A stretch of 63,718 bases of DNA, the filler included, from Collodictyon triciliatum (taxonomy: Eukaryota), in NCBI GenBank assembly GCA_043381765.1. It is 4 parts of 4 records of this genome, joined end to end, with 100 filler letters (N's around TTAATTAATTAA, not from the genome) between each part and the next. Parts side by side here need not be neighbours in the genome. Positions count along the whole stretch, not along the records: positions 1 to 22,728 come from JBHJMP010001275.1; positions 22,829 to 42,675 come from JBHJMP010001278.1; positions 42,776 to 62,562 come from JBHJMP010001280.1; 1 more part is not named here. The stretch is one strand, 5' to 3'. The translations under genes were made by a program, and so were the position numbers. A model generated the notes under the pieces. The model worked only from the letters and a program-made list of their open reading frames with translations. It ran no database searches and was not told the origin of the DNA. Positions within the stretch are counted from its first letter, which is position 1; each line of letters starts with the position of its first letter. Shown here piece by piece: positions 8,772-62,662 of this stretch.

Positions 8772-11700
8772 CTATTCGCCCTGCTCTTCCATCCACTCGA
8801 CATTCTTGCTGAACATCATCCACACGTCTGTCTGCTCCACCACACGGTATAAACTCACCGCCCTTTTCATCATGATTTCTGCCTGTTCGCACTCTTCAGC
8901 CTTAAAGCCTCTCAAACGTTGCATATCTCGTACAATCGCTTCAGTGGCCTAATCAAGAGTGAAGCGAAGCTCAGCTCACACATGCCTACGTTCAATCCAT
9001 AGACGCTTTCGCTTTGGTTTTGTGCGAGCGTGTGATATTAATTATAATAAAATAAAATAAAAAACAGTCCAAAATGACTGGTTTTAGCATCTCTTCAAAG
9101 AGCCTCAACCAAACTCACATGAATAATGCCGCTTCTCACTCTCCTCGATACGGCAAGCGTAGTGCAAACTAAGTCCACACCAAAACAAAAAAAAATGTAT
9201 TATAGTCGTACCCAAGTATTCGACTTTTTTCTTCATTAACTCATATTCGATTCATTCGAATAAAGGAAAAAAATTCATATTTGATTCATACTATATATAC
9301 ATGACTTTTAAATCAGTGGGATATATAATCACATACCTGCATCTCCAAAGCAATCATACATAAACTCATGATTTCCTGTATTCAATACATGAAACCGTTG
9401 CTCAGCCAGCCATAGATAATTACATACAGCCCACAAAGAAGCGAAGACATAAATAAGTAGCTGACTTCTTACCTATCAATCCGTAAACCAGATTTCCTTT
9501 GTCGATGCATATCCCGGCTTGGACGCCATTGTTTGATTCAAGGCGGCTCATAAGATTGAAGAAATTCACAACCTTTAAATCGAATATCGTCAGATTCCCT
9601 GCGAGAACCATTCGATTGCATTCACTATGTGAGCTTATGAAGAAATATTCTATTTCAAGCAGCTACTACTTGAAATCCGAACTGCAGTGCTTGCTCCAAA
9701 AGCTTTGTGGTCTTCTCTAGACTTTTGTTTGAGTCGATGGCTTTCGGGATGACCTAAACGATTCAATTGCTAAGTAAATGCAAAAACAATGACATACTGC
9801 GGTCGATTCTATACACTTTGAAGGTATTCCAGCCATAGTGATGTAAAGGGATGCTTACAACCACATGGCTTGAAGACGCTTTGACCACCTCCATGCGAAG
9901 CGATTTCGCCAGACCCTCGATAGCCCTGACCGTATCTGTTGTGTATATGTGTGTTTGTTTGGAAAGATAGACGCGTCTCACAAGTCACGCACAAATCCAA
10001 ATATCCTGACCTGATACTCTCACGAAATCTGACCCGGTAGTATCCACCTCTTTTGCAAACAGATATCGTATGTGAATGGTAACGATGACCGAGTCTTGGA
10101 TAAAAGAATTTGAGGAGAAGCGGTTGCCCCTGAGATTTTCAAGCATTTGGTCGTTCAAAGCTGAGAGAAGCACCTTCTCATTTGTCTCGTTTTCATCAAC
10201 GAGCTCGTCAATGCCCTTAAATGTGTAGATATGACAAAAAAGGAAGAATAAATTCATGTGATGGATGAAATTCTTGATTTATATTGGGTGAGTGCTTCAT
10301 GTAAATGAACGGCATGAAAGTAGAAGAGGTTCAACATTCAAATATATAATGGGTACCTTGTTCAGATGGTTTGTATCTAGATATTCTTTCCTCGTATTTA
10401 AATCTCGGGATATTGAGAGAGAATAGAATATAAAAAACGGTATCGCTGACCAATTCACTATAGAAACCCCTCTCTGATTTTGAGCGATGCTAGAGAATTA
10501 ACAATCAGCACCACAATATATAATTTATCAAAAGGATTCTAAAGTACTTACCCCATTTTCGCATTATAATGAAATACTAAAAACATCCAGGATGATAGCC
10601 ATACAAATATTTGCATTAAAATAGGACATGTTGAGACTGACAAGGATGAAACAAAATAGAAGCCGATTTGGTATATCTCTGAGAATAGGAACCCTGATTT
10701 ATACCAATTTAAATGACAACCAAGACCGTAATCTCCATAGACCAGCAGCAAGCGACTCAAAGAGAAGGTTCCATACACCATCCCAACAATCAATGGTATG
10801 TCCCAAATATTCACCATCTTGTAGATGTAGCTCTCCGATGATTCCCAAAAGTAAAATGCTCCCGACAAGCACACTACAACAGGAAGACTCACAAAATATC
10901 GCACAAAAAATATCGGACTTGTTGCTACGTCCAAGTCTTGGCATTCCTCCTCCAAAATACAATAGTCGATATATCCATAGCAAATCAACGATAAAATCAC
11001 AGACAATAGCTGTATCCTGGTGCGTGTCATCATTCAATAATGAGCTTACTTTTCCTTCAAAATACCGACCAAGCTCTGTCCAATATGATAATCTAATAAC
11101 CATGTCAGTATATTTATCATAACTGATATTTACTCACATCGTGGTTTTCCTGTTTCTCTTCGTCTGCAAGCTTCTCTGGAAATCCTCTTCCTCCTCTTTT
11201 CTCACGAATCGCAGGTCTCCAAACGTCCCAAACAATCCTCTTGTTTGACGAGCGAGCTTGTATGGATTTGCAGACTCTACATCCTGTAAATAGAGACACT
11301 GTCACTGCAATATTTTGTTCTGCGCAGGGGTTATCAAACCATATTTCCTCATTCTATCGTTAGTCTCACAAGGCACCTACCACCTGGCTATCTTTTGTCC
11401 CCAGTGTTTGTGCCGTGTCTTCAAACTCCTTATGAATGCTTCGGCCCAGTGCATGCTGGACAGGATTTCCCTGAATACCTATTTGACTGGCGTACTTGAG
11501 CATCCACCTTTGTTTCGGCTGCACATTTGACGTGAAGTGCACCTTCTCGAATGAGCAAATGTCGCTCTATATCGCCGGACGAAAAGATAAAGATATCATA
11601 TGATGTGAATATATTTGCAAAGAAGGTTACAAATGGCTGAAATGATGTTTTGAGGGTCTCTTTGAGCGATGTGGATGTCTTTTCACTCCCAAAATCGCTC

Positions 11701-14439
11701 CAAACTGCATTCCATGTGATATTGCAAACCCATTCGGCGACTTGCTCACACCACGTTTCCTTCGCTTTGTTGTCCAGCGTGATTTGCCAATCACGAGCTT
11801 CAGATAATGAGACCATCGCCTCCTCATACGCTGGTAGATTATGGTGGTGAATAGCATGGATATTTGTCTAGTTGTAAGAAATCGCTTCGAACCTTCTCCG
11901 ATGATATCAAAGATGCTTTTGGAATGCTCCACCATTCCTCCTTTAACCCACCCCCACCCGATTCCGATGGTGACTGTAGCCTTTCGTGTCGAGTATTGAG
12001 CAAATTGTGAGGTGGCATTCCAGAGAGAAATCATTTTGAAACTTTTGAGAGTATGCAGGCAGCAACAAGGTACACTCACATGGACTTTTTGTTCTTTTTG
12101 GCAGCTCTCCATCATGTTTTTTGCAACTTCGATGAGATTGACAACACTCTCACCAAAAAGACCAGTCACAAACTAGAATTATTGTGAGCTTGGTGAGCGT
12201 GGTTCTGCATGAGAAGATACGAACACATGAAGTCAAACAATTTTGACTTTCTTGTTATTTTCATTTTCATTTTCTTTTTGATTTTTAATTTTAATTTTAA
12301 TTTTAATTTTCATTTTTGATTGATTGATTGATTGATTGATTCATTAATTGATTGATTCATTGACTGATTGATTGATTTATACAAATGCTCACAGTGATGC
12401 AAAGTCCTATGAAAAAGAGGAAAAAGTGAGTGGCGCACATGTTTTAATCATAAATCAGGTGGAAATGATGATATCAATATTTATTCTTTTTGATACCTGT
12501 AGAATTGACCTTGTGGATTCCGTAGCTAAGATGTTGAATACTTTAATATCGACTTGATGAGGAAAATGGAAGGAAAATGGACGAAAAAGTTGAAAAAAAG
12601 AGGAAGGAAAGAACCTGTTTGCAACGTGAAGTATGGTTCTAGTTTGCACATATAAACATTAGTTCTACAAGCTGCTTCAATAAATCAATAGAATACTTGA
12701 TTTAGATTTTGCAACTCTTTAATTATAAATATCCTCACCCGTAGAGTTTTTCGATGTCCTTGACAACTGTTTTGAAGTTATGAGGTGTCAATTCCTGTGC
12801 ACTTATCAAAACACATATGACAGAGCATTCTTGGCATTGATAGGAAGGTGTTGCCATGGAGTCTTGGGTGATTGCGTTTACAATAGGTCTTTTCAAAATA
12901 AAAAGATTAAGCGCTGTAAAATAGAAATCAAACTATCTTGTATCTCTGACGATATGCTCGATTGCTGGTATATATTTGGAATGACCAACCTTGGATAGAG
13001 ATTGTGGAGAAGGAACTTTGTGCGGTTCCTGGTCTCGGCCACTTGTGCTTTTATCCATTTCAATTTTTGGATTGCGTAGAAGGAGCTAGAGTTTCGTGGA
13101 CAATTCAAGGGAGGGGATATACAAAATCTGAATCTAATAATGTCCAGTGTAAAGAAAAGATTCTGGTAAGAATGGATGGGATGACGAGCGTACTGCTTTC
13201 TTTGGGTCTCTGTGATTCTCAGCAATGCGACGCTTATGACGGATGTGATGAGAAGTGGGGCTATGCATCGAAACAGAATCGAGAAACTTCCTTGTGTTGA
13301 TATCAATAACAAAATAGTCGGCAAAAAGTTTGTGTATACAGTCATTCCGATTTGCGCTGGGTAATCCCCAGGTATTACGATGGTCATTCCCTGTAATTTT
13401 TGGGTATAAAAGAACCGATTGTTTTATCAAAATAATATATAGTTAGATAAATTCTATCTATTTATTTGTTTGTTGATCGATTCTTAATGTTGCTGTTTAG
13501 CCCCATCGATACATACCATTATGAGAAGCTGAGATACACCTAGCGCCCAATTTTCGTCCAAGAAAGTGATAAACGAGAAAATGGTACTGCAGTAGAAAAA
13601 TATGGCTCCATGGTAAAAGAAGTAAAGCCTGTATATATTAGATATTAAAAAAAGGTGAAAAGATATTGTTCACACAGTTTTTTTAAAAATTTTTTGTTTT
13701 ACATCAAGCTTTGCGTATTTTACTATTTAATTTAAGCGAGATGTTACTTTGAGCAACGCGCACTTTTTGTTTCTTTATGGATATTCCACTTGACATACAG
13801 TAGAATGTACAGACAGCCTCCTGACACTGCCATAGAGCCAATCGATATGAAAATGCCGTCCCATGACAGTATTATCCTGCGAAAATATGTTAAAAAGGAC
13901 TCATTAGAAGGTAAGTAGTATATGGAACTCCAATCAAATGGAAAATAAAGTTCAACTGAATTGTAATCATTTGATGCGAAAAAACAATGCCCATACGCTC
14001 CAACAACCAGCATCCCGTTGAACAGAAAGCCAAGCACTGATATCAATGTGCACAAGAATAAAGCTTTCTTGGCGGTGTGTATTCGATAATCTCGGTCTAA
14101 TCTCTGGTCCTCAAACGCAAGGGTTTTGTTGTCTATCCGGTCTGAGGGGAAACAGTCTCGTTGCGAGTCGCTTGTCCGGTACTCCCGGAAAACAGTGGGC
14201 AGCTTGGACGAGAGAGACGAGATGTTTGAATCCGCCGAGTTCTTGCGTCTTTTTTCGGGTTCTATCTTGCCTGCAGGGCTATGCTTTACCTCACGGACCT
14301 TCAATTGAAGAAAGGTGCCTTCCCTTGCGGTCGTTGCATACTTTGTTGAGAGATGCGAGGAAACGGAAGACGCGATGCTCTGGGAGCGCATTTTATTCGT
14401 GGTGCTCGCTCGACCTATTCTCTGTTGAGGCGCCAACAT
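8772..14439 (-). CDS. Transmembrane class III nucleotidyl cyclase-like protein (TM-C1-TM-C2), catalytic motifs degenerate
   Basis: ORF start MLAPQQ at 14439; TM exons 13744-14060 and 12990-13390; LLHNLYP linker; C1 FVTGLF..VTIGIGWGWVKGGMV..FDIIGE; second TM exon 10548-11033; C2 AGICIDKGNLVYGLIG|NHEFMYDCFGDA|VCTTLAVSRRVRSGIIH|ATEA; TAG at 8772. Confidence 0.8.
9241..9289 (+). mobile_element. Micro-insertion TCGAATAAAGG(A)7 between 15-bp direct repeats
   Basis: TCATATTCGATTCAT (9241-9255) / TCGAATAAAGGAAAAAAAT / TCATATTTGATTCAT (9275-9289), one mismatch between the repeats; in a cyclase intron. Confidence 0.65.
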
Positions 14440-15719
14440 GCTCAGTGAATTTGTATTTTATTGCACATAAAGGAAGAACATAAAGAAATAAAGAAGCAAA
14501 TTCAAAAAAGAGAGGAAAAAGACAAATAAAATATATATATTGAACGAGGTTCATCTTTTAGCTATTTGAGCAGCATGAGGATATGCTTGTCAATAAAATG
14601 GATAGTTCAGTGGCTCTTTTTTTTTTTCTCTTATTCACCGAGAGAGAGAGGCGCGCGATGCGGCTCCAAACGCCTGGGTTAGTGCGCACTGTACGAGACT
14701 ATGAAGCTTTTTTTCTCTCTCTCTCTCTTTTTTTTTTTTTTTTGACTCTTAATCAAGTTTGGGATGTGTCAACGGTTAGCGAAGATAAGGCAATATGTAC
14801 GGTACTTCGTACATGTCATCCTTTGCGGGCGTGGTGTGTGGACAAGCCTCACGGGTAGCCGCAAGATGTTTCCGCAAAAGTGAGGCTTTGGAGGCTTCGA
14901 TGGAATGCTCCCCACATGAAAAGGCCTCGGCTTGGTGATTTTGGATTTCACGAAGGCAATAGCATGAACCATTTCAGACAACATCGGGCGCATTTGTCTT
15001 TGTCATTGAAATAATTCACTAGAGAAAACGCATCTGCGAAATGGGTGCTGGTGTTGCATCTATGGCCCTTGTGCCCGTTCGAACTCAGCGAAGCTTTTCT
15101 CGCCCCGCAAATAGGGTGTGGCCATCGCTATTTTCGTGTACGAGGTTTCTCAGTCACGTAGCGTAGAGGGCGAGTCTTTCTAACCCAACACTTTGACTTC
15201 ATGCGACCTGTATATTCGTTTCACAAGCCTGTTGCGACCACCACAACCCGCTAAAGTCTTGACATATGTATTCGTTGGGCATGATTGCTCGGCCAAGTGC
15301 AATTTCGTTTCATAAGAAATCTTTTATGTTGACTGCAAGAAATAGAATTGGATGGTAAAATGCATGGAAAGAAGACTAACATATATTGACGTTCTGGTTG
15401 GTACATTTGCCGACTTAGCGAGATACAAAACTCTGGATGAAAACAGAGAAAACGAAAAGTATGAACTTGGGTGATGGTTTTAAACAATTCAGCAAGCATG
15501 AGTATATGTATTGCAAACGGATGCCAGCAATTTATGAAGGAAACAAATTGTTTGGGATATTTTCCGTACATTTAGAATCCATTCAGAGTAAATGTCATTC
15601 TCTCCGTAATATTGATTTGCAGAGCAGCCATTATATTAAGAGTCTGACCATTTTGCGAACACAAACGTAAAAATATACTAACAAAATCCAAAAAATAAAT
15701 AAATAAATTATAATAAACC

Positions 15720-20398
<4,679 letters not shown>

Positions 20399-21585
20399 CG
20401 CAGTTGGCAGACTATTGAAGGGCGGGCTACTTGGCAGATCCTGACTTCTATTCCCCAGAGCGTAAAAGAAACAAATCGCAACGAAAAAGAAAAAAAAAAA
20501 GACTAGTAAATAAAAAGCGTCACTGCACTCGCTTACTGCGGGATGGAAAGCCCTTTAGGACGAAGTTTAGGGTTATGCGAGAATTCCCTCGAATAGAAAA
20601 AAAGGAGCTATCAGTGGAGAACTGGACTTTACGCGAGAGGATTCTGGCTAAAGTTCAATCCGTGCCCACATCATTCAGCGACGCAGTTTTTGTGGTATTA
20701 GTATCTATTTATTTTTGTCTTTTGTTTTTTGCCCGAGACAAGATGAGTTGATTTAAGGAAAGCTCACAATTAGAAAAACATCCACCCTTCAAATAAGAGG
20801 ATTATCCGGGCTGCATCTTTTGTGCAGAACAGAGGCAACGATTCTGTAGATGATAAACACAATCTGTGAGCGTGTCAACATCGCCTCCATATCCGGTTCT
20901 TTGTGTCATTACACAGCTTTCTTCTCTTTCATCTTTTTTCTTTCGATATTCGAATAAACAGCACCAATATGTTCTCATTATTTTCTTAGCTAGTGGAATA
21001 AAACAACGTGGGTTATCCATCCGGCGTTACATGACAAGCTTGGGAAACAGACCGTTACATGCCAAGACCAGTTACCGACCCAACGAATGATATTCATATG
21101 CTTTTCCTTGAGCGAAACTTGAAAAACTGAGACGTGCGACTTGGATTGCCAGTGGGATTTTTTTTCAGACGCCATTCAGTTCTAACATGAAGTGCATTTG
21201 CCAGATTGTATGACATGCCCCTCTGTGCTATGACCCAAACAAACTTACGAATCATAGGATTTCATATCAATCTATGCCCGGTTTTACACGTATAATGGTG
21301 ACAGAACTTAAAAGATGCATAAAAGAGCGCCAATCAGATTGAATACCAAAGCAAGGCTCGTACAGGCTGAGTCCATACCGGGGATATCGGCTCGAATGAA
21401 CTCCCAGTCAAGATTTGCAAACATTATGTTTTCTTGTGTATCCTTTTCCTTTCCCTTTCGCCAGCAGTCAACTCGCAAATCTTCAAGTGTGGCTGGCCCA
21501 TGTCTGGCTTGTCGAATATCTGAACACTAGACTTTGATAATCGATTAAGTGGCATGTATTTGCCTTATTTTATTTTCCTTTTTAT

Positions 21586-21745
21586 CTCATAAATGAGCTT
21601 TATCTACTGACTAGAAGGGGTATACCATCTTTTAATTGGCAAACCTGGTGCGCTAGTATCCAAGGTCTCGCCACTTTTTTCACAAAGGTCGTGTAGTGGT
21701 GAAGGCTGCCAGGTAAGACCCGACAGCCTGTTTTTTAGAGGAAGG
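21586..21745 (-). ncRNA. Candidate Fanzor omegaRNA scaffold / element 3' end
   Basis: Lies directly downstream of the Fanzor stop. Consecutive stem-loops on the minus strand: AGGCTGTCGGGT-CTT-ACCTGGCAGCCT (21729-21703, 12 bp including two G-U), TCACCACT..AGTGGCGA with inner CACGA/TTGTG (21702-21668), GACCTTGG..CCAGGTT (21667-21642). Boundaries inferred. Confidence 0.6.
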
Positions 21746-21753
21746 TGTATGCA

Positions 21754-22728
21754 TTATTGAAGAATTAAAAGACCTTTCTTGAGTATATCATTAGCGCTGT
21801 TAAAGTTCCTTATCAAGAATACACTTTGTTTGCTTTTTGAGCGATTGCATTATATACATATGAGACATCTATACACTTTTTTTTTGAATTTCCTATCAGT
21901 TTCATATATTCCAGTTCTTTTTCGCAGTTACAACACATCTTGGAGGTTCTAAATTCATTTTCACTAAATGGTTCAAAACGTTTGGATACTATTTTTCGTA
22001 ATCCTCTTCCGATTGTTGCCATAAAATGGTTCATCTGACATTTTCTACTCCTGTCTCCATACGCCAGTACAACATCCTTGCCAAAATGTCTTTTCGATCC
22101 GGTCCATAAAGAACTGTTCACTTCTTTTTGTGTTAACATACTGTCTCCATATCATCTTTCGAAAAGTTACGTGTTCATAAAATCTGGGTAGGTCTATCTG
22201 GTATCTTGATTTCATATATATATATTTTCGAAAACTTTAATCAACCGTGCATGAATTATGTTTACTCAGTTCTGTCTCTAAATCGATTAAAGATGCTCTT
22301 GATGTCTCAAACTGCCGATTCTCTTCAAAAGTCATGTGACTATAAGAAACAGCACTTTGTAGATCTGTTGCCATGTATATCCCTGAAAAATTGTATTTTC
22401 TTTTTTTTTTCTTGCGCAAGAGTATTTTGTGATTTTTAAGAGATTTGCTATCATGTCTTCTTCGGTGTGCCGTGTAACGTAATTGCTTACCTGTCTCGTC
22501 CACCATGTAAACCATATTAAACTTGCCTGCGTCCACTCAAACTATTTTTTTTTTGTCTCTGATAAAGATAACTGCTCTTCGGAAAGCTCATATAAATAAA
22601 CATGTTCTTGGGGGGTTTTTTTTGGTTATATTTGAATTTTGAATTTGAAATACCTTTCTTTTCAAACAATAATGACACCACCTAGCCGTCTGTTTGTATC
22701 ATGTATTTGAAAGTGTAGTCTCTTTGAT
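21754..22728 (-). pseudogene. Fanzor (eukaryotic TnpB-like RNA-guided endonuclease), C-terminal half, disrupted; 5' part lost at contig end
   Basis: Translation across stops and frameshifts: YTFKYMIQTDG*VVSLLF; KIV*VDAGKFNMVYM (RuvC-I); LETELSKHNSCTVD; FYEHVTFRKMIWRQY..RSEQFFMDRIEKTF/GKDVVLAYGDRS; GRGLRK; NEFRTSKMCCNC (RuvC-II Glu plus Zn finger); RCLICI*C; RNFNSANDIL (RuvC-III). No introns. Confidence 0.9.
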
Positions 22729-22828
22729 NNNNNNNNNNNNNNNNNNNNNNNNNNNNNNNNNNNNNNNNNNNNTTAATTAATTAANNNNNNNNNNNNNNNN
22801 NNNNNNNNNNNNNNNNNNNNNNNNNNNN
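22729..22828. other. Artificial contig linker N44-TTAATTAATTAA-N44
   Basis: 12-mer with stops in all six frames centred in N; identical construct occurs three times. Confidence 0.95.
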
Positions 22829-22830
22829 AT

Positions 22831-23568
22831 TCACAGACAGAGGCGCTCACGGACTGTATCCTGCGTTTCGGTGCCACAACAGAGTGGTTTACCTTTGTCG
22901 ATGTTGACGAATTTGTTGTCCCAGCGGCTCCTTATCCCTCCATTCACCACATCCTAACCCACACGCCTCTATCAAATTCCTCATACATTCATGTAAAGTG
23001 GATTACATTCGGGCCCTGCACGCATCCACGCGAAAAGAAACCATTTGACTCATCCAGCACCATACAAACGTTAAATTCAAACAACACGTTGCCCATGACT
23101 CCATCGCCATCACCGATATACTCGCCTCCTCTCCATAGCCAACAGTTGCTTTTGTCAAATCGCACACTGGCCATGGAAATATGCCACTCAAAAACAAAGG
23201 TCGGCTCCGAACTTCCCAAAGCCATCTTTCGGGCACGTGGTGCGGTAAGCATTCACGGCTACGGGCCTCATCATGTTCGGTTGGTTAACGACCTGGGCTC
23301 CTCAAACAGAACAAACGGTGTACCTGGTGATGAGTACATGCGAGTGTATCATTACCGATACAAGACTTGGAATGACTTCTTCTCACGGCGCTTGGGCCCC
23401 ATCGCCGGGCTCTCTTCCAAGTGGACAGAGTTGTCCCTTCGTGGCTCGTGGAACAGAGGTCTCAGAAATAGAAAACCGTTCCCAAAAGAAAAAAACACCA
23501 TCCTTCGATTCATCCCGAAACTTCGACAGCGGCTAAATCTAACAGAGTCTATCCTTGGGTTCAGGTGA
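22831..23568 (+). CDS. Glycosyltransferase family 92 / DUF23-like (GT-A fold), 5' truncated by gap
   Basis: Uninterrupted frame QTEALTDCILRFGATTEWFTFVDVDEFVVP..VKWITFG..PKAIFR..PHHV..VYHYRYKTW; DxD motif in DVDEF; TGA at 23568. Confidence 0.75.
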   Translation, partial: SQTEALTDCILRFGATTEWFTFVDVDEFVVPAAPYPSIHHILTHTPLSNSSYIHVKWITFGPCTHPREKKPFDSSSTIQTLNSNNTLPMTPSPSPIYSPPLHSQQLLLSNRTLAMEICHSKTKVGSELPKAIFRARGAVSIHGYGPHHVRLVNDLGSSNRTNGVPGDEYMRVYHYRYKTWNDFFSRRLGPIAGLSSKWTELSLRGSWNRGLRNRKPFPKEKNTILRFIPKLRQRLNLTESILGFR

Positions 23569-24278
23569 ACGAAGTTTACCCACAAGCCTGTCTGCTCAAT
23601 TTCCAGTCTTTTTTTAAATCCTCCTTTCGATTTTTTTTTTTTTTTAAAAAAGAAATTACAAAGCTTTTGTAATTGACTTTGCTTTTTTTATTTCAATTTG
23701 TTTCGTCCTTCCTTATTTTCCTCTACGCTTTCCCAACCATATTTCCATTCCTCTTGCGCTTTCCTCTGCTCCTCCAGTCTTGTGAGAGAGTACTTGGAAA
23801 TCCATTTGTTGCTCCTCTTTCTCTGCGCAGCGCCAGCCACGCCCGGAGCCTTTGCAAGTGCAAGGATTCTCATTCTCATTCTCATTCTGATTCTGATTCT
23901 CATTCTCAACACTCTAAACTATACATCCTCCTTTTATCTCTCGATAGAGTATGGCATACTCGAAGCGAAAGTCCCTCAAATAAAAGCATCCAATATTTTA
24001 CACATGGCAACTCTGATAGAATTTCAAACAGCGTAACCTTATAATAGAATTATTTTTCTTTTAAAAAAACAAAACAACATGGAAAGCGAAAAAAAAAAAC
24101 GAGGGAAAAATTGAAGAATACAAAAGATGTCTAATAAGCAAATGGTGCCCTGAGTAGAAAATGACAATTGTAACTATTAATTGCTTCGTTGTTTTAATTT
24201 ATTTCAAATGACAGATAGTTCAAGGCGAAACAAAAACAAAAAGAAAAAATCATTAGAGAAGACGGTCAGCGTGTCAAA

Positions 24279-30045
<5,767 letters not shown>

Positions 30046-31039
30046 AAAAAAAACCAGCAGAAAATACAAGGAAGTGCTCTCTGGCGCAGTTATCTATTAA
30101 ATACAAATGAGTAACAAAAGAAGCATTCTGGAAAGCTTGCGTGCTGGCCCGATCGTGAGTCTGCTACGCAGCCCACCACGCCTTACTTTCATAATACATG
30201 TTTTGAGCTGAGGCATCGAAGCGAAAGAAAAAGGAACTGAACCGAAAATGGTGCTGTTATGTTCCATTTAAATGTGTCCGTAAAAAATATATGGTAATAT
30301 TAATGCAATTGTGGATTTTATATAGTTTTCTATTAGGAACCTATGGAATGGAATAATTCAGACAATCAATCAAGATATTATAATCACTTTACTTCATATT
30401 ATAATATCAGAGTTCTACAATTTCCAAGCACCACTGCATAAGGGCGTTCGCAACTCTACCGCCATTTGGCTGCTTTCCTGGGCTTTTCTTTTCCGCTGTT
30501 TCACTCCGACTGTCTTCATCGTCCCTTGGTCTTTGCATATGGTTAATTATATGGAATGTCGGTGTTATTCGCGAATCTATGCGTATCAAAAAAACAAAAA
30601 AGTATGTTATCCCTCTGTAACTGGCTCATTCAAAAGACCGCCAATCCGGCCGGGTAAACCCTCCTTAAGAAACTCGCACATCACCCTCTCCAACCCCGCT
30701 CAAATATCAGGGAATGCTTGTGGGGGAACGCGCTAATCTGTCGGGAACGCTGATTCAAAACAACGTTGCGAAAAGGAAGACGACGAATTAACAATCGTAG
30801 GGTTTGCCAGATTGCATTTTCTCTCATATACAGAGAACTTTGTTTTATTTTTTGGCAGGAAGTAAAAATTGCGTGAATAGTCCATGATATGATGCGATAT
30901 TAGAAAGTGATGGAGAGATGAATGGTGGGGTGAGTAAAGGAGGAGGTTCTTGTCAAATAGACAGCACAGGCATCGTGGGTTGGAGTTTCATCGTTTCAAA
31001 CAGTTTGCATTGTCTGGTGCGTGCCGTCTCGGTTATTCA

Positions 31040-34905
<3,866 letters not shown>

Positions 34906-36399
34906 TTTCGAGCAAGATAAAAAAAATATTAGGGGATCGGGTCTTCATCACAAGAACAATGGTTGGTACAGCCTTTTAGAATAGGCCTGGGCAGTTATGC
35001 GTCAGAGATTGATACCGAGGCTGAAATGTCACTGACAAAGAAAAGAAAAAATACTTTTAAAAAAGGAGTCAGACAAAAAAAAGCAGAGTTAAGGAACAAT
35101 GTGAGTTCACAGAAACTTCAGGTTTTTTTTATTCGGGCTCTCTGTGCGAACCAAAACAATGACACGATTCATTTCTATTCCACCTCCAATACTATTTCAA
35201 TAGGCGAGATAAGAAAGAAAAAGAAAAAGAAAAAGAAAAAGAAAAAAATGCTGGGCCGATCGTTTCCACCCGGAGATACAAGTCCCCAGGCGTCTTTGCC
35301 TTTTTCTCGCCAAGGCGACGAGCGATCGCAGAGATGAGAAGCGCCCAAACCCACTCGTCCCAGAACCTCACGCATCAGACTGATCTTTTGGCAACAGGCA
35401 AACAACAAACAACCATCCGGCTGAGATTTGTAGTGATGCGCCAAAAGGATGGACGAAATGGCTGCGCTTGCAGAATAGAACTTGTCTTCAATCTCGGCAA
35501 TTCAATGAATCGGCCTGCATATGTATCAACAAGTCGTTGGAACATCTCCAGAATTGGAATTGTAAAACATATCCGTTTTTGTATAATCCAAGAAAAAAGG
35601 GAAGGTCTGTGCAACGGGATTCTCGGTTGGGATGCGGTGTTGTTAGCACCCAGATTGCGGATTCGAAAAATACATTCAATGGTTCGTGACAAAATAGGTG
35701 TTTTTCTTAAGGACATTTTGTGTCCATAGCAAACCGCCAATGCATACCCACAAGACACAGATTACTCCACATATGATATTTTTCATTGTATCATTTGATT
35801 CAGGACGAGCTGTCTTTTTTGAGTCATATTTCTTTGAAAGGTTGCAACACGATTCTGATCAAACCAAACCCATCAAATGCTCCTGTGATCAAAAGCTGCT
35901 CCACGATTCGCACGAAGGCGCTTGCCAGAAAAACCCGAGTCGGAAGAAGAGAAGCGTTCTGTGATTCATGACACTGATTCGCAAGCAACATAACACCAGC
36001 GCGAAGAGGGAAAGGCTACTCAGCGAAGCCTGATAGTATTCAAGCTCAGAATGTAAAGAAGACTCGGTCGTGACTAGCCTCGTTTGTCTGATCGCAGATT
36101 CAACCTTGTTTCCGATCATTTTCATACCTTTATTCATGTATTTATTCTGCCTGGGGTGGAGGTCCGCTTTCACTTCATGAAGTCTCTTCTGTACCTTTTT
36201 TTTCTTTATGTTGAGAAAGTGTTCTTGCCTTCTGTAATACTTTATGTGTGTGCGTTTTTTTTTTTTTTGTGACTCTCGTTTCGCGTTCAAAAGGGAGCTG
36301 CTGTATACTGACCTGTGTGAATATTCTTTTTTTTTTTTGTTTGTTTGATCGAAAAAGGGACTCCCACTCGCAAAGGAATTGAAAGGCAAGGCAAGGTCC

Positions 36400-41960
<5,561 letters not shown>

Positions 41961-42950: not shown

Positions 42951-45900
42951 CTCACGCTTGGCCATATCTGAATGTGTTACCACAGGCGAAATTGGTGCCG
43001 CGTTTGCCAGATCTGAAGATGAAGATATTCCAAGCACGCTATACTATCGCCCTTTTAATACGTGGACACATAATAGCGAATGGACAATACAACTGCCTAT
43101 TGGAGAGGAAGTCAAAGGTAAGCAACTTATAAAATTTCTTTTGCTTGTAAAATTTTTTTTCCTTTATTCGATTCTTTTGCTTGTAAAATTATGTGATGTG
43201 ACTTGTATTCTATTAAAAACAATTTGATAGCCCTTTGTGTTGGTTTGAAGTGGACCGCGATTTGTACTTCCAAGCAATACATCAGGATTTTTACATATTC
43301 TGGAATTCAAAGATATGTCTTTTCGTTGAGCGGGCCAGTTGTTTGTATGGCTGGCAAGGAGAACAAACTATTCATTGCTTACCATACTTCAGAGGGTTTC
43401 TATGGTATTCTTCAACGACTTGACTATTCTGTCTTTTTTTTTTAAAAAAAAAACCATGAGTGTGAGAATTACATTTTTACTACTTTCAAATATTCAAAAG
43501 CGTCACTTTCATAGAAACGCAAGACCAACAGATTGGATATATTCTCCTCGATGTTGAAGAATGTCAGCAAATACAAAATGGGTTTATTTCAACCTCAGTT
43601 GGCTCTGAACTAAGGTGGATAGGGTTCACAGAAAGTGGTGTAAGTTGATTAAAAAAATAATAAATATATGACAATTACATTCCATTTCGATTACTCCCAA
43701 ACTACAATCTGATTCCGCATATTTATGGCTAGGAATTTTTAAATAAAACTATATATGTAAATGGCTTATCAATCGGTATTTTACATAGATGCTCGCCACA
43801 TACGATAGTGCGTTTGTGATTCGAATTCTCGCACCTATATTCGGCTCCAAATGGGTTCCCATACTGGATTTTCAAACAAAAAGAAAATCCAAAGATATTC
43901 ATTTCATTGTCGGTATTTTAGACGATAAAATTCTCACATATGGGTGCAAGGTGTGTTAAACAGTTGCTGTTTTTCTGGTGTTACAATCAACATTTTAAAT
44001 GTTGCATTTTTGTTGGAAGAAAAACATAGCTTCATGGTTTCTATATTTATAGTCCCTTTATTCAAATAGAATGGTAAAGAGTATCCTTCGACTCTGCCCC
44101 GACCGATAATCCAGACTTCGCCCATGTCAGTCCCTCTGCTCGCCCCTGAACATTCGTCAACCAAACATGAAGATGCGTATCCAGATACTCAAACAGCTTT
44201 TATATATGCTGGTTTCAGATGATGATAATAATAATTGAAAATACAACCTGACATTCGCCCTGATAACTCAGCTTTTCTCATTAGTTTGGTTTATGTTCGG
44301 GGGTTTCCTTTTAAAAAATAATCAATCGTCAATAAAATCATTTACCTGGCCACCCACACGTTCATTACATTACATATTCTTGACTAAAAACTAGATTCAT
44401 AAGACACGAACTCAACTTCAAGTTTTTGATGAAGCGCATGGAAGAGGTTTTACAAAATTGATTCCCCCCCCCCCCGTTACATTAATATTTAATACCTTCC
44501 CTGATGCGAGCAACCAAAACCGTCTGACTTTGCTGCCTTATACAGGATGACGAGGATGAGGAATCACTCCAAGAAATAGCATTAAAAATACACAAGTCGA
44601 AAGCTCATATGGATGCAGAAGTTTTGAAGATGATTGAAGTACACTTTATTATCAATTTATCGCAACTCATTTTGTGATATTTTATTTTCTACAATCCAAT
44701 TTCGGGTTTATCATATTTTTCAAGTCGCTCTTTGTCATTTTTCTTTCTTAAAAAAAAGGCATCGTGCAAATCAGAGAAGGGATTGAGATGCCTCGATTTG
44801 ACCAGTTTACTCCATCTGAAGAAAGCGATTGATTCGGCCATATCGATTGCGGAGTCGTTCCGCCAATACAACCTAGTTGAAAGAATGAAGCTCATTGCAG
44901 CAGTAATAAGTTGCTTTATTTTACCTACATTATTTGCCACATGAACTACTCATATATTAATGGTTGTTTCCAAATTATTATAGTCAAACGAGGACGAAGC
45001 TCCCACAGTCGAAGTCAAGGCACAGGCTAAGAAGGTATTATTTATGTCTGTTTCATACATTTATTTCATGTGACTCTATTCAGGTGTGGACTATACTTAA
45101 TTTTTTTGAATAATGACAACAAAGTAAATACGCAATAATTGCTGTTGACTCTTCACAATTATTTAGATATCAAAGTTACATCGTAATTATTTTCTTTTGG
45201 GAACTCCCTTCCAGGTACGCACTCGTGAAAGGTATTCTGATGAGAGAGAAGATGAGAATCGCAACGACGACGAGTACAGACCAACCAAGCACACCAGAAT
45301 ATCAGATTCTATCCCAAGCCTGTCAAACTACGAAGCTAGCGAAAAATCCAGCTTGCACAGGTAGTTATACTTGATTGTCATTTTTATGTACTCGTAGGTA
45401 TTTCAACACTAAATGTCGCATGTTCAAGGAATATATAGTCACCATCATATTATAACATCATAATCTATTCTCTCGGTAATATATTAGTTTTGAGCTGAGT
45501 TCGCAACCAACGATTCACGATTCTCCTCTCGCCCCAACACCAGCGAAAATTCCGCGTATGAAAAAAATATCTATATATACAAAATTATTACTATATTATT
45601 TGTACATTCGCATTTAAACTCCTTTAATGTATTTGTTCTAAAGCCGTATTTTTGTACAAACATTCTATTCATCGAAAATGGTTGATGATGCAGTCCCCAA
45701 CCCGTTTTCGAGGAAATCACCGGCACCAGCCCCAGTAACCCAACAACCAGATGCAAAAGCAAATATTTTCGATTCATTGAACGAACTTGCCACCAAAGGT
45801 TTTTAACTTACAATATTTCGCTTATTTTATTTGACATATTTTATTTTGTTTTACATGCTTCTCGTAGCCCCAATTGGCGAGTGCGTAGAGGTAACTGCGC

Positions 45901-62377: not shown

Positions 62378-62562
62378 TCTCTTCTCTTCTCTTCTCTTCT
62401 CTTCTCTTCTCTTCTCTTCTCTTCTCTTCTCTTCTCTTCTCTTCTCTTCTCTTCTCTTCTCTTTTATTCTCTTTTATTCTCTTTTATTCTCTTTTATTCT
62501 CTTTTATTCTCTTTTATTCTCTTTTATTCTCTTTTATTCTCTTTTATTCTCTTTTATTCTCT
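62378..62562. repeat. (CTTCT)n/(CTTTTATTCT)n repeat at contig end
   Basis: Direct reading. Confidence 0.9.
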
Positions 62563-62662
62563 NNNNNNNNNNNNNNNNNNNNNNNNNNNNNNNNNNNNNN
62601 NNNNNNTTAATTAATTAANNNNNNNNNNNNNNNNNNNNNNNNNNNNNNNNNNNNNNNNNNNN
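62563..62662. other. Artificial contig linker N44-TTAATTAATTAA-N44
   Basis: Same construct, 12-mer at 62607-62618. Confidence 0.95.

Follow-up and report, generated by a model that had tools for sequence, protein, structure and literature searches.

Three very short A-tailed insertions with private target-site duplications in a genomic stretch of Collodictyon triciliatum

Results

Three inserts with a common tag, each between its own direct repeat

A stretch of 63,718 nucleotides of genomic DNA of Collodictyon triciliatum (assembly GCA_043381765.1, filler included), referred to in the following as the window, was analyzed. It contains three copies of a very short insert, which consists of the tag TCGAATAAAGG and a run of A residues. 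The tag followed by an A-run occurs exactly three times in the window, at 9256-9274 (plus strand), 33255-33283 (minus strand) and 43155-43171 (minus strand). The inserts have lengths of 17-29 nt, and every copy is located between its own private direct repeat, which abuts the insert exactly and is regarded here as a target-site duplication. The initial annotation had described the same core with an A-run at these three positions, and both the coordinates and the sequences were confirmed; the feature is real. The parts of the three sites are as follows, in the orientation of the element:

9241..9255, plus strand: site 1 duplication, 5' copy, TCATATTCGATTCAT; contains the 11-mer TATTCGATTCA
9256..9274, plus strand: site 1 insert, TCGAATAAAGG followed by A7 and T, 19 nt
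9275..9289, plus strand: site 1 duplication, 3' copy, TCATATTTGATTCAT; 14/15 identical, C to T at a CpG
33284..33296, minus strand: site 2 duplication, 5' copy, ATTGTATAGGCAC as read on the minus strand
33255..33283, minus strand: site 2 insert, the longest copy, GAACTTTGAATCGAATAAAGG followed by A8, 29 nt
33242..33254, minus strand: site 2 duplication, 3' copy, ATTGTATAGGCAC; 13/13 identical
43172..43190, minus strand: site 3 duplication, 5' copy, AATTTTACAAGCAAAAGAA as read on the minus strand; the last 3 nt are GAA
43155..43171, minus strand: site 3 insert, TCGAATAAAGG followed by A6, 17 nt
43136..43154, minus strand: site 3 duplication, 3' copy, AATTTTACAAGCAAAAGAA; 19/19 identical

The duplications are all different from one another, i.e., 15 nt with one mismatch at site 1, 13 nt and perfect at site 2, and 19 nt and perfect at site 3, as had been claimed. 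Altogether, 46 of the 47 duplicated positions are identical, and the sole difference is the C/T exchange at the CpG of site 1. The 11-nt cores of the three inserts are also identical. The site 1 duplication can be read as 16 nt as well, and then both mismatches (9240/9274 and 9248/9282) have C in the 5' copy and T in the 3' copy, on the same strand. These two mismatches, a sample of n=2, could be due to ordinary decay (one is located at a CpG) or to deamination of exposed single-stranded DNA.

All three copies have the same 3' end, namely AATAAAGG followed by an A-run of 6-9 residues. The A-runs comprise 7, 8-9 and 6-8 residues at sites 1, 2 and 3, respectively; ranges are given since some of the duplications start with A (AA in the case of site 3). 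The 5' starts are unequal. Two inserts start with TCGAAT, and the third starts 10 nt further 5'. At the 5' junction of site 3 there is a microhomology of 3 nt, GAA, which corresponds to the bases in front of TCGAAT in the long copy at site 2. The distance from the 5' end to the A-run is 11 or 21 nt, and with this microhomology counted the values become 11, 14 and 21 nt; three copies are too few to speak of a ladder.

The flanking repeats exceed the chance expectation

The numbers of motif matches in the window were compared with those in shuffled sequences. The 15-mer CGAATAAAGGAAAAA, with up to two mismatches allowed, had three matches, all of them exact; the shuffle mean was 0.68, and three matches were reached in 2 of 100 shuffles. 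With up to one mismatch allowed, AATAAAGGAAAAAA had four matches versus a mean of 0.35, and none of 100 shuffles reached four. The fourth of these matches, at 37837, has no flanking repeat. For the 11-mer core alone, again with up to one mismatch, four matches were found versus 1.74 expected, and 10 of 100 shuffles reached four, which is not significant. No diverged copy of the core within 2-3 mismatches was detected in the window. The near-matches at 44055 and 37837 were considered as further copies and were rejected, as they lack either the A-run or the duplication. Dispersed 15-mers that are not of low complexity form 11 groups in the window; only the motif described here is present at three loci, and the other 10 are bare pairs at chance level.

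Next, direct repeats were scored irrespective of the motif. An exhaustive scan for exact direct repeats of at least 11 nt, 5-80 nt apart, yielded 28 rows, 25 of which lie within tandem arrays; the non-tandem rows are a bare 11-mer at 22051, site 2 and site 3. When one mismatch in 13 was allowed, 27 rows with seven non-tandem loci were obtained, and three of these seven loci are the sites under study. The remaining four are 13-14 nt long with one mismatch each, and about five such loci are expected, according to a hand estimate from the base composition that was made without a shuffle control. In addition, position and insert length were drawn at random 300,000 times, with the satellites left in. 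An exact flank of at least 13 nt was found in 1.1% of the draws, and a 15-nt flank with at most one mismatch in 1.3%. Scored against this background of about 1% per site, three of three motif sites are flanked, which is far beyond chance. The statistical weight is carried by the flanking repeats, which are decisive.

The three copies lie on separately assembled scaffolds

The window contains linkers of 44 N, TTAATTAATTAA and another 44 N at 22729-22828, 42676-42775 and 62563-62662. They join three scaffolds, of 22,728, 19,847 and 19,787 nt, and the beginning of a fourth one, in descending order of size. Because separate scaffolds are joined by these linkers, anything that spans a linker is not physically linked. 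Each of the three copies is located on a different scaffold, and both orientations are represented, so the linkers bear out the earlier statement that three separately assembled blocks are involved. Sites 1 and 2 are more than 8 kb away from the nearest N-run, and site 3 is located about 380 nt from the start of its scaffold.

The source genome is that of an intron-rich, microsatellite-rich, protist-like eukaryote. In a protein search, a Sec23 exon matched one transcriptome-derived EukProt protein with 84% identity, and the hits that followed, to a contig, an insect and orchids, had at most 58%. By tblastn, the individual exons are 75-91% identical to the EukProt protein, and identities to animal and plant proteins are about 50-58%. 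Searches with a GT92 exon and with a PARG exon gave no match. The load of microsatellites and homopolymers in the window is very high, e.g., A84 at 42592-42675, (TTTCT)54 at 41291-41557 and (AAAACCA)12.6 at 693-782. Further repeats are (CAA)35 at 19782-19886 and a 10-mer present 18.5 times at 62378-62562. Microsatellites and homopolymers, many of them at scaffold ends and next to N-runs, probably limit the assembly.

Host introns, putative at site 1

The initial annotation had placed all three copies in introns. The host introns, of which the one at site 1 is predicted, are:

9169..9336, minus strand: host intron of site 1, 168 nt, GTATGT...TTAG, in a cyclase-like gene; element antisense
33197..33335, minus strand: host intron of site 2, 139 nt, in a gene for a PP2A B56 regulatory subunit, the upstream exon ending with ...LHRFYGK; element sense
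43118..43230, plus strand: host intron of site 3, 113 nt, GTAAGC...GATAG, in a Ctf4/WDHD1 (Mcl1_mid) gene; element antisense

For sites 2 and 3 the assignment to introns is supported by homology of the predicted genes, and this part of the claim stands. The intron at site 1 is weakly supported, its location being predicted from a weak similarity to cyclases. It is flanked by exons that read ...FMYDCFGDA and V..TTLAVSRRVRSGIIHVS and resemble the catalytic motif of nucleotide cyclases; we take FGDA/V...GIIHVS (the slash marks the exon boundary) to be this motif. The matches to Guanylate_cyc near site 1 are weak and do not reach the Pfam cut-off: the E values are 0.11 in the neighbouring exon and 0.028 in a second domain that lies further upstream.

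These two sub-threshold matches, within 9098-12172 on the minus strand, are to the same region of the profile and are about 2.3 kb apart, which points to a nucleotide cyclase gene that has two domains and is split into many short exons. The same cyclase-like gene may include the long, membrane-protein-like exon at 13747-14457.

Relative to the host genes, one copy is in sense orientation (site 2) and two are in antisense orientation (sites 1 and 3), in agreement with the earlier statement that both orientations occur. Insert and one duplication copy together make up 34 of 168 nt, 42 of 139 nt and 36 of 113 nt of the introns at sites 1, 2 and 3, respectively. If the inserts are retroposition stubs, each event would have made its short intron longer by roughly one quarter to almost one half of the former length. 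What this shows of intron growth is local to the three sites.

Discussion

Probable retroposition of the 3' terminus of one A-tailed RNA

We consider it probable, short of being well established, that the sites arose by three separate retropositions, each from the 3' terminus of a single A-tailed RNA, (...GAACTTTGAA)TCGAATAAAGG-A~8, by target-primed reverse transcription (TPRT). This reading is based on the shared 3' end, the unequal 5' ends, the variable lengths of the duplications and the 3-nt microhomology at one 5' junction. At all three sites the A-rich 3' end is next to the 3' copy of the duplication, and the duplications are variable, specific for each copy and stand out from the background. 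The view of the initial annotation that the sites have the hallmarks of TPRT fits: the 3' ends are shared and A-tailed, the 5' starts differ, the duplications span 13-19 nt, and site 3 shows microhomology at its 5' junction. As a mechanism it is the best available reading, and it is unproven. The further proposals of that annotation, a recently active LINE/SINE as the parent, numerous copies throughout the genome and a possible contribution to intron growth, go beyond what the window shows.

The RNA intermediate, the enzyme and the parent element are all deduced from the structure of the inserts. An endonuclease-type enzyme of a non-LTR retrotransposon would nick one DNA strand, and the freed 3' end would prime reverse transcription at the A-run of the RNA. 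Only 11-21 nt would be copied, and the cDNA would then be joined across a break staggered by 13-19 nt. Fill-in of the stagger would generate the private target-site duplication of each insert. The template was most likely not a random cellular mRNA but the transcript of the mobile element itself or of a dedicated non-autonomous partner, because all three events in the window copied the same RNA and no other. The insertions look young, since the duplications are identical at all positions but one, the cores are identical, and a diverged copy is lacking in the window.

The case is probably an unusually short-product example of something already known. The target-site duplications of human short retrocopies driven by L1 peak near 15 bp (PMC2831318), and junctional microhomology is described for 5'-truncated L1 insertions in two further studies (PMC11702581; PMC2912911).

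Several observations weigh against this reading. A profile scan of 331 open reading frames (ORFs) of the window revealed no reverse transcriptase or apurinic/apyrimidinic (AP) endonuclease family; the scan comprised ORFs of at least 60 aa, and shorter ones, ORFs with X residues derived from N and low-entropy ORFs were dropped. A longer copy of the insert was not found in the about 61 kb of the window, nor was any other insertion with poly(A) and a duplication in the same about 61 kb, when ranges of up to 8 kb were scanned. The eight rows of the latter scan are sites 2 and 3, one tandem array and five bare 11-mers, two of which extend across scaffold linkers. The copies number only three, and every product is at most 29 nt long, which would not be predicted from a broad spectrum of 5' truncation. 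The A-runs are short and nearly constant, whereas young L1 copies have long and variable tails. This near-constancy hints at an encoded end of about eight A residues rather than at a free poly(A) tail. The nick sites AAC/TCAT, ATT/ATTG and CAT/AATT (element strand, with the slash at the nick) resemble the TT/AAAA of L1 weakly; T/A is present at the nick in two of three junctions, in a small sample of three sites. Site 1 has an extra T between tail and duplication. Lastly, the 29-nt RNA has no significant fold (z 0.36), and the window contains no tRNA gene and no Rfam match (ARAGORN, Rfam) that would mark a short interspersed nuclear element (SINE), the visible part of the template being its last 21 nt. 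A tRNA T-arm-like reading of the antisense strand, made by eye, was dropped; the stem is weak, and neither ARAGORN nor Rfam reported anything.

Complementarity between the site 1 target and the template

At 9244-9254, the duplication at site 1 includes TATTCGATTCA, an 11-mer that is exactly antisense to positions 7-17 of the long insert. Outside the inserts and the extended junction of site 3, neither strand of the 21-mer has another match of at least 10 nt in the window. The number of such 11-nt matches expected by chance in the duplications is about 3 in 10,000, as estimated by hand from 17 possible 11-mer starts in the three duplications and one match per about 61,000 positions. An older antisense copy beneath site 1 was also considered, but could be aligned only with a gap of 10 nt and was not convincing. 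Under TPRT, the overhang of the top strand of the target could pair with the template RNA, as in the annealing step of twin priming. The match is a hint, from one single site, that RNA-target pairing may help to complete very short insertions. Together with the near-constant tail, the complementarity at this site could inform how very short TPRT intermediates are completed.

A more far-reaching possibility is that of a micro-retroposon, whose normal product would be a tag of at most 30 nt, with a template end of about eight encoded A residues and an integration that is aided by base-pairing between RNA and target, to which the complementarity at site 1 points. The activity could be that of a retroelement or a cellular reverse-transcribing one. 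We regard this as unlikely. If it were true, there would be about one copy per 20 kb, invisible to repeat finders, and every event would add 34-42 nt to a short intron, which would amount to a measurable and continuing contribution to the growth of introns. A family that consists only of tags of at most 30 nt was not found described in a limited search of the literature.

Even as ordinary retroposition stubs, if they are real ones, the three sites would mean that a gene-dense and seemingly transposon-poor genome can harbour an active reverse-transcribing element, with footprints that are too short for any standard repeat annotation. They would also represent a concrete and countable route to intron growth. 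With three copies, these are at present leads rather than results.

Alternative explanations

TPRT may also have acted on a template other than the tail of a LINE/SINE. An abundant A-tailed RNA of cellular, organellar or viral origin would have been mobilised in trans by a retrotransposon enzyme, and the inserts, as copies of its 3' end, would then be ultra-short processed pseudogenes. Human mRNA-derived retrocopies of at most 300 bp with poly-A and target-site duplications of about 15 bp are documented (PMC2831318). In the inserts described here, AATAAA is close to the end, and element-coding sequence was not found in the ORFs of the window, both of which would suit such an origin. However, one and the same RNA was copied in all three events, which better matches a cis-preference of an element for its own transcript, and no source gene was found within the window. 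Moreover, only 2 nt separate AATAAA from the A-run, an atypical distance for a cleavage signal. Taking both sides into account, mobilisation in trans appears rather unlikely. Filler DNA from the repair of staggered double-strand breaks, by end joining or template switching, is a different matter. Here 17-29 nt of one very abundant donor DNA or cDNA would have been copied, and the repeats would have arisen by fill-in or by upstream re-annealing. The tiny size of the inserts and the microhomology at the site 3 junction are in line with this, and the 11-nt match of the site 1 target to the antisense strand of the donor suggests a role of annealing. Yet a single donor, always with the same A-run end, would have served three unlinked loci, the staggers implied by duplications of 13-19 nt are long and regular, and no other filler-type insertion was found above chance level in the window, so that repair is decidedly improbable as the source.

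An artefact of library or assembly would require an untrimmed oligonucleotide, or an error of gap closing between overlapping contig ends that mimics duplications. In favour of it, N-runs and microsatellites are numerous in what is a draft assembly, no divergence is seen among the copies, their duplications are nearly perfect, and site 3 is close to a scaffold start. Against this, the overlaps have a different length at each of the three sites, as do the A-runs, the inserts start at two different 5' positions, sites 1 and 2 are far from any gap, and the CpG-to-TpG difference in one duplication is as in real, aged DNA. Collections of plasmids and phages gave matches at chance level only (E of 2 or more), and to our knowledge the insert resembles no common sequencing adapter. 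In bacterial and archaeal genomes the sole exact matches of the 21-mer are in one conserved ORF and are without an A-run. We consider an artefact very unlikely. A bacterial source was also rejected: the 21-mer GAACTTTGAATCGAATAAAGG is present exactly in three contigs of Crocinitomicaceae metagenome-assembled genomes (L001-L003, positions 301-321), inside the conserved ORF (...GKNFESNKGRLPAPVSSGSIVESFGRNAHP...), and is followed there by TCGATT... in place of an A-run. About 0.3 such matches are expected by chance, as estimated from the size of the database, and the three related genomes count as one independent match, which was judged to be a chance match in one gene family. AT-rich introns and the lack of a significant enrichment of the 11-mer alone (10 of 100 shuffles) would be compatible with an AT-rich word that recurs by chance, or with an intron motif that is functional and conserved. 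Such an explanation has a negligible probability in view of an exact 15-17-mer that is present three times, each time abutted by a long private direct repeat for which the background per site is about 1%. In addition, three of the seven non-tandem repeat loci are the three motif loci, and their host genes, orientations and positions are unrelated.

Comparison with known systems

Retroposition of one A-tailed RNA, the favoured reading, was compared with described systems. With 5'-truncated insertions of the L1 type (AP-endonuclease), the inserts share a common, A-rich 3' end with AATAAA, 5' ends that differ, a private duplication of 13-19 nt per copy, microhomology at one 5' junction and an occurrence in introns in either orientation. 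In contrast to L1-type insertions, they comprise only 17-29 nt in total, the A-run is short and near-constant, and the targets are not clearly TT/AAAA. In addition, neither a parent with reverse transcriptase and endonuclease nor a longer copy was seen in the window, and the host is a protist-like eukaryote and not a mammal.

The closest printed analogue found is the set of short processed pseudogenes of human mRNAs. These are likewise recognised purely by a poly-A tract and target-site duplications, which peak at about 15 bp, also derive from RNA 3' ends and were also missed by standard annotation (Terai et al. 2010, PMC2831318); the set is, however, reported as at most 300 bp long, the novel ones have a median of 356 bp, and many different mRNAs are represented. 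The inserts described here are at most 29 nt long, and one template was used three times. Twin priming, which leads to 5'-inverted L1 copies, has a parallel at site 1, where an internal stretch of 11 nt in the template RNA is complementary to the top-strand overhang of the target; twin priming needs an annealing of this kind (PMC11702581). Unlike in twin priming, no inverted segment was added, and the 11-mer lies within the duplicated target, so the target carried it before the insertion.

Templated or filler insertions by end joining of the polymerase-theta type share the very short templated inserts and the junctional microhomology. Such inserts are not known to have long regular duplications or A-tails, nor to draw repeatedly on one donor for unlinked sites. 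Miniature inverted-repeat transposable elements (MITEs) and introner-type DNA transposons are alike in being small, dispersed intronic inserts. Unlike the sites described here, they have terminal inverted repeats and target-site duplications of a fixed length; no inverted termini are present in the insert, and its duplications vary between 13, 15 and 19 nt. A footprint of a MITE or another DNA transposon was ruled out on these grounds.

A Fanzor-like ORF in the window

An ORF of 112 aa at 21816-22151 on the minus strand, about 600 nt from the end of the first scaffold, has no Pfam match. It matches the C-terminal nuclease/zinc region of Fanzor 1 of Parasitella parasitica (PDB 9cf0_P, residues 1114-1189, E 7.3e-07). 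By this similarity the ORF is a predicted eukaryotic TnpB-like (OMEGA nuclease) gene or a remnant of one. No other coding signal related to transposons was seen in the window.

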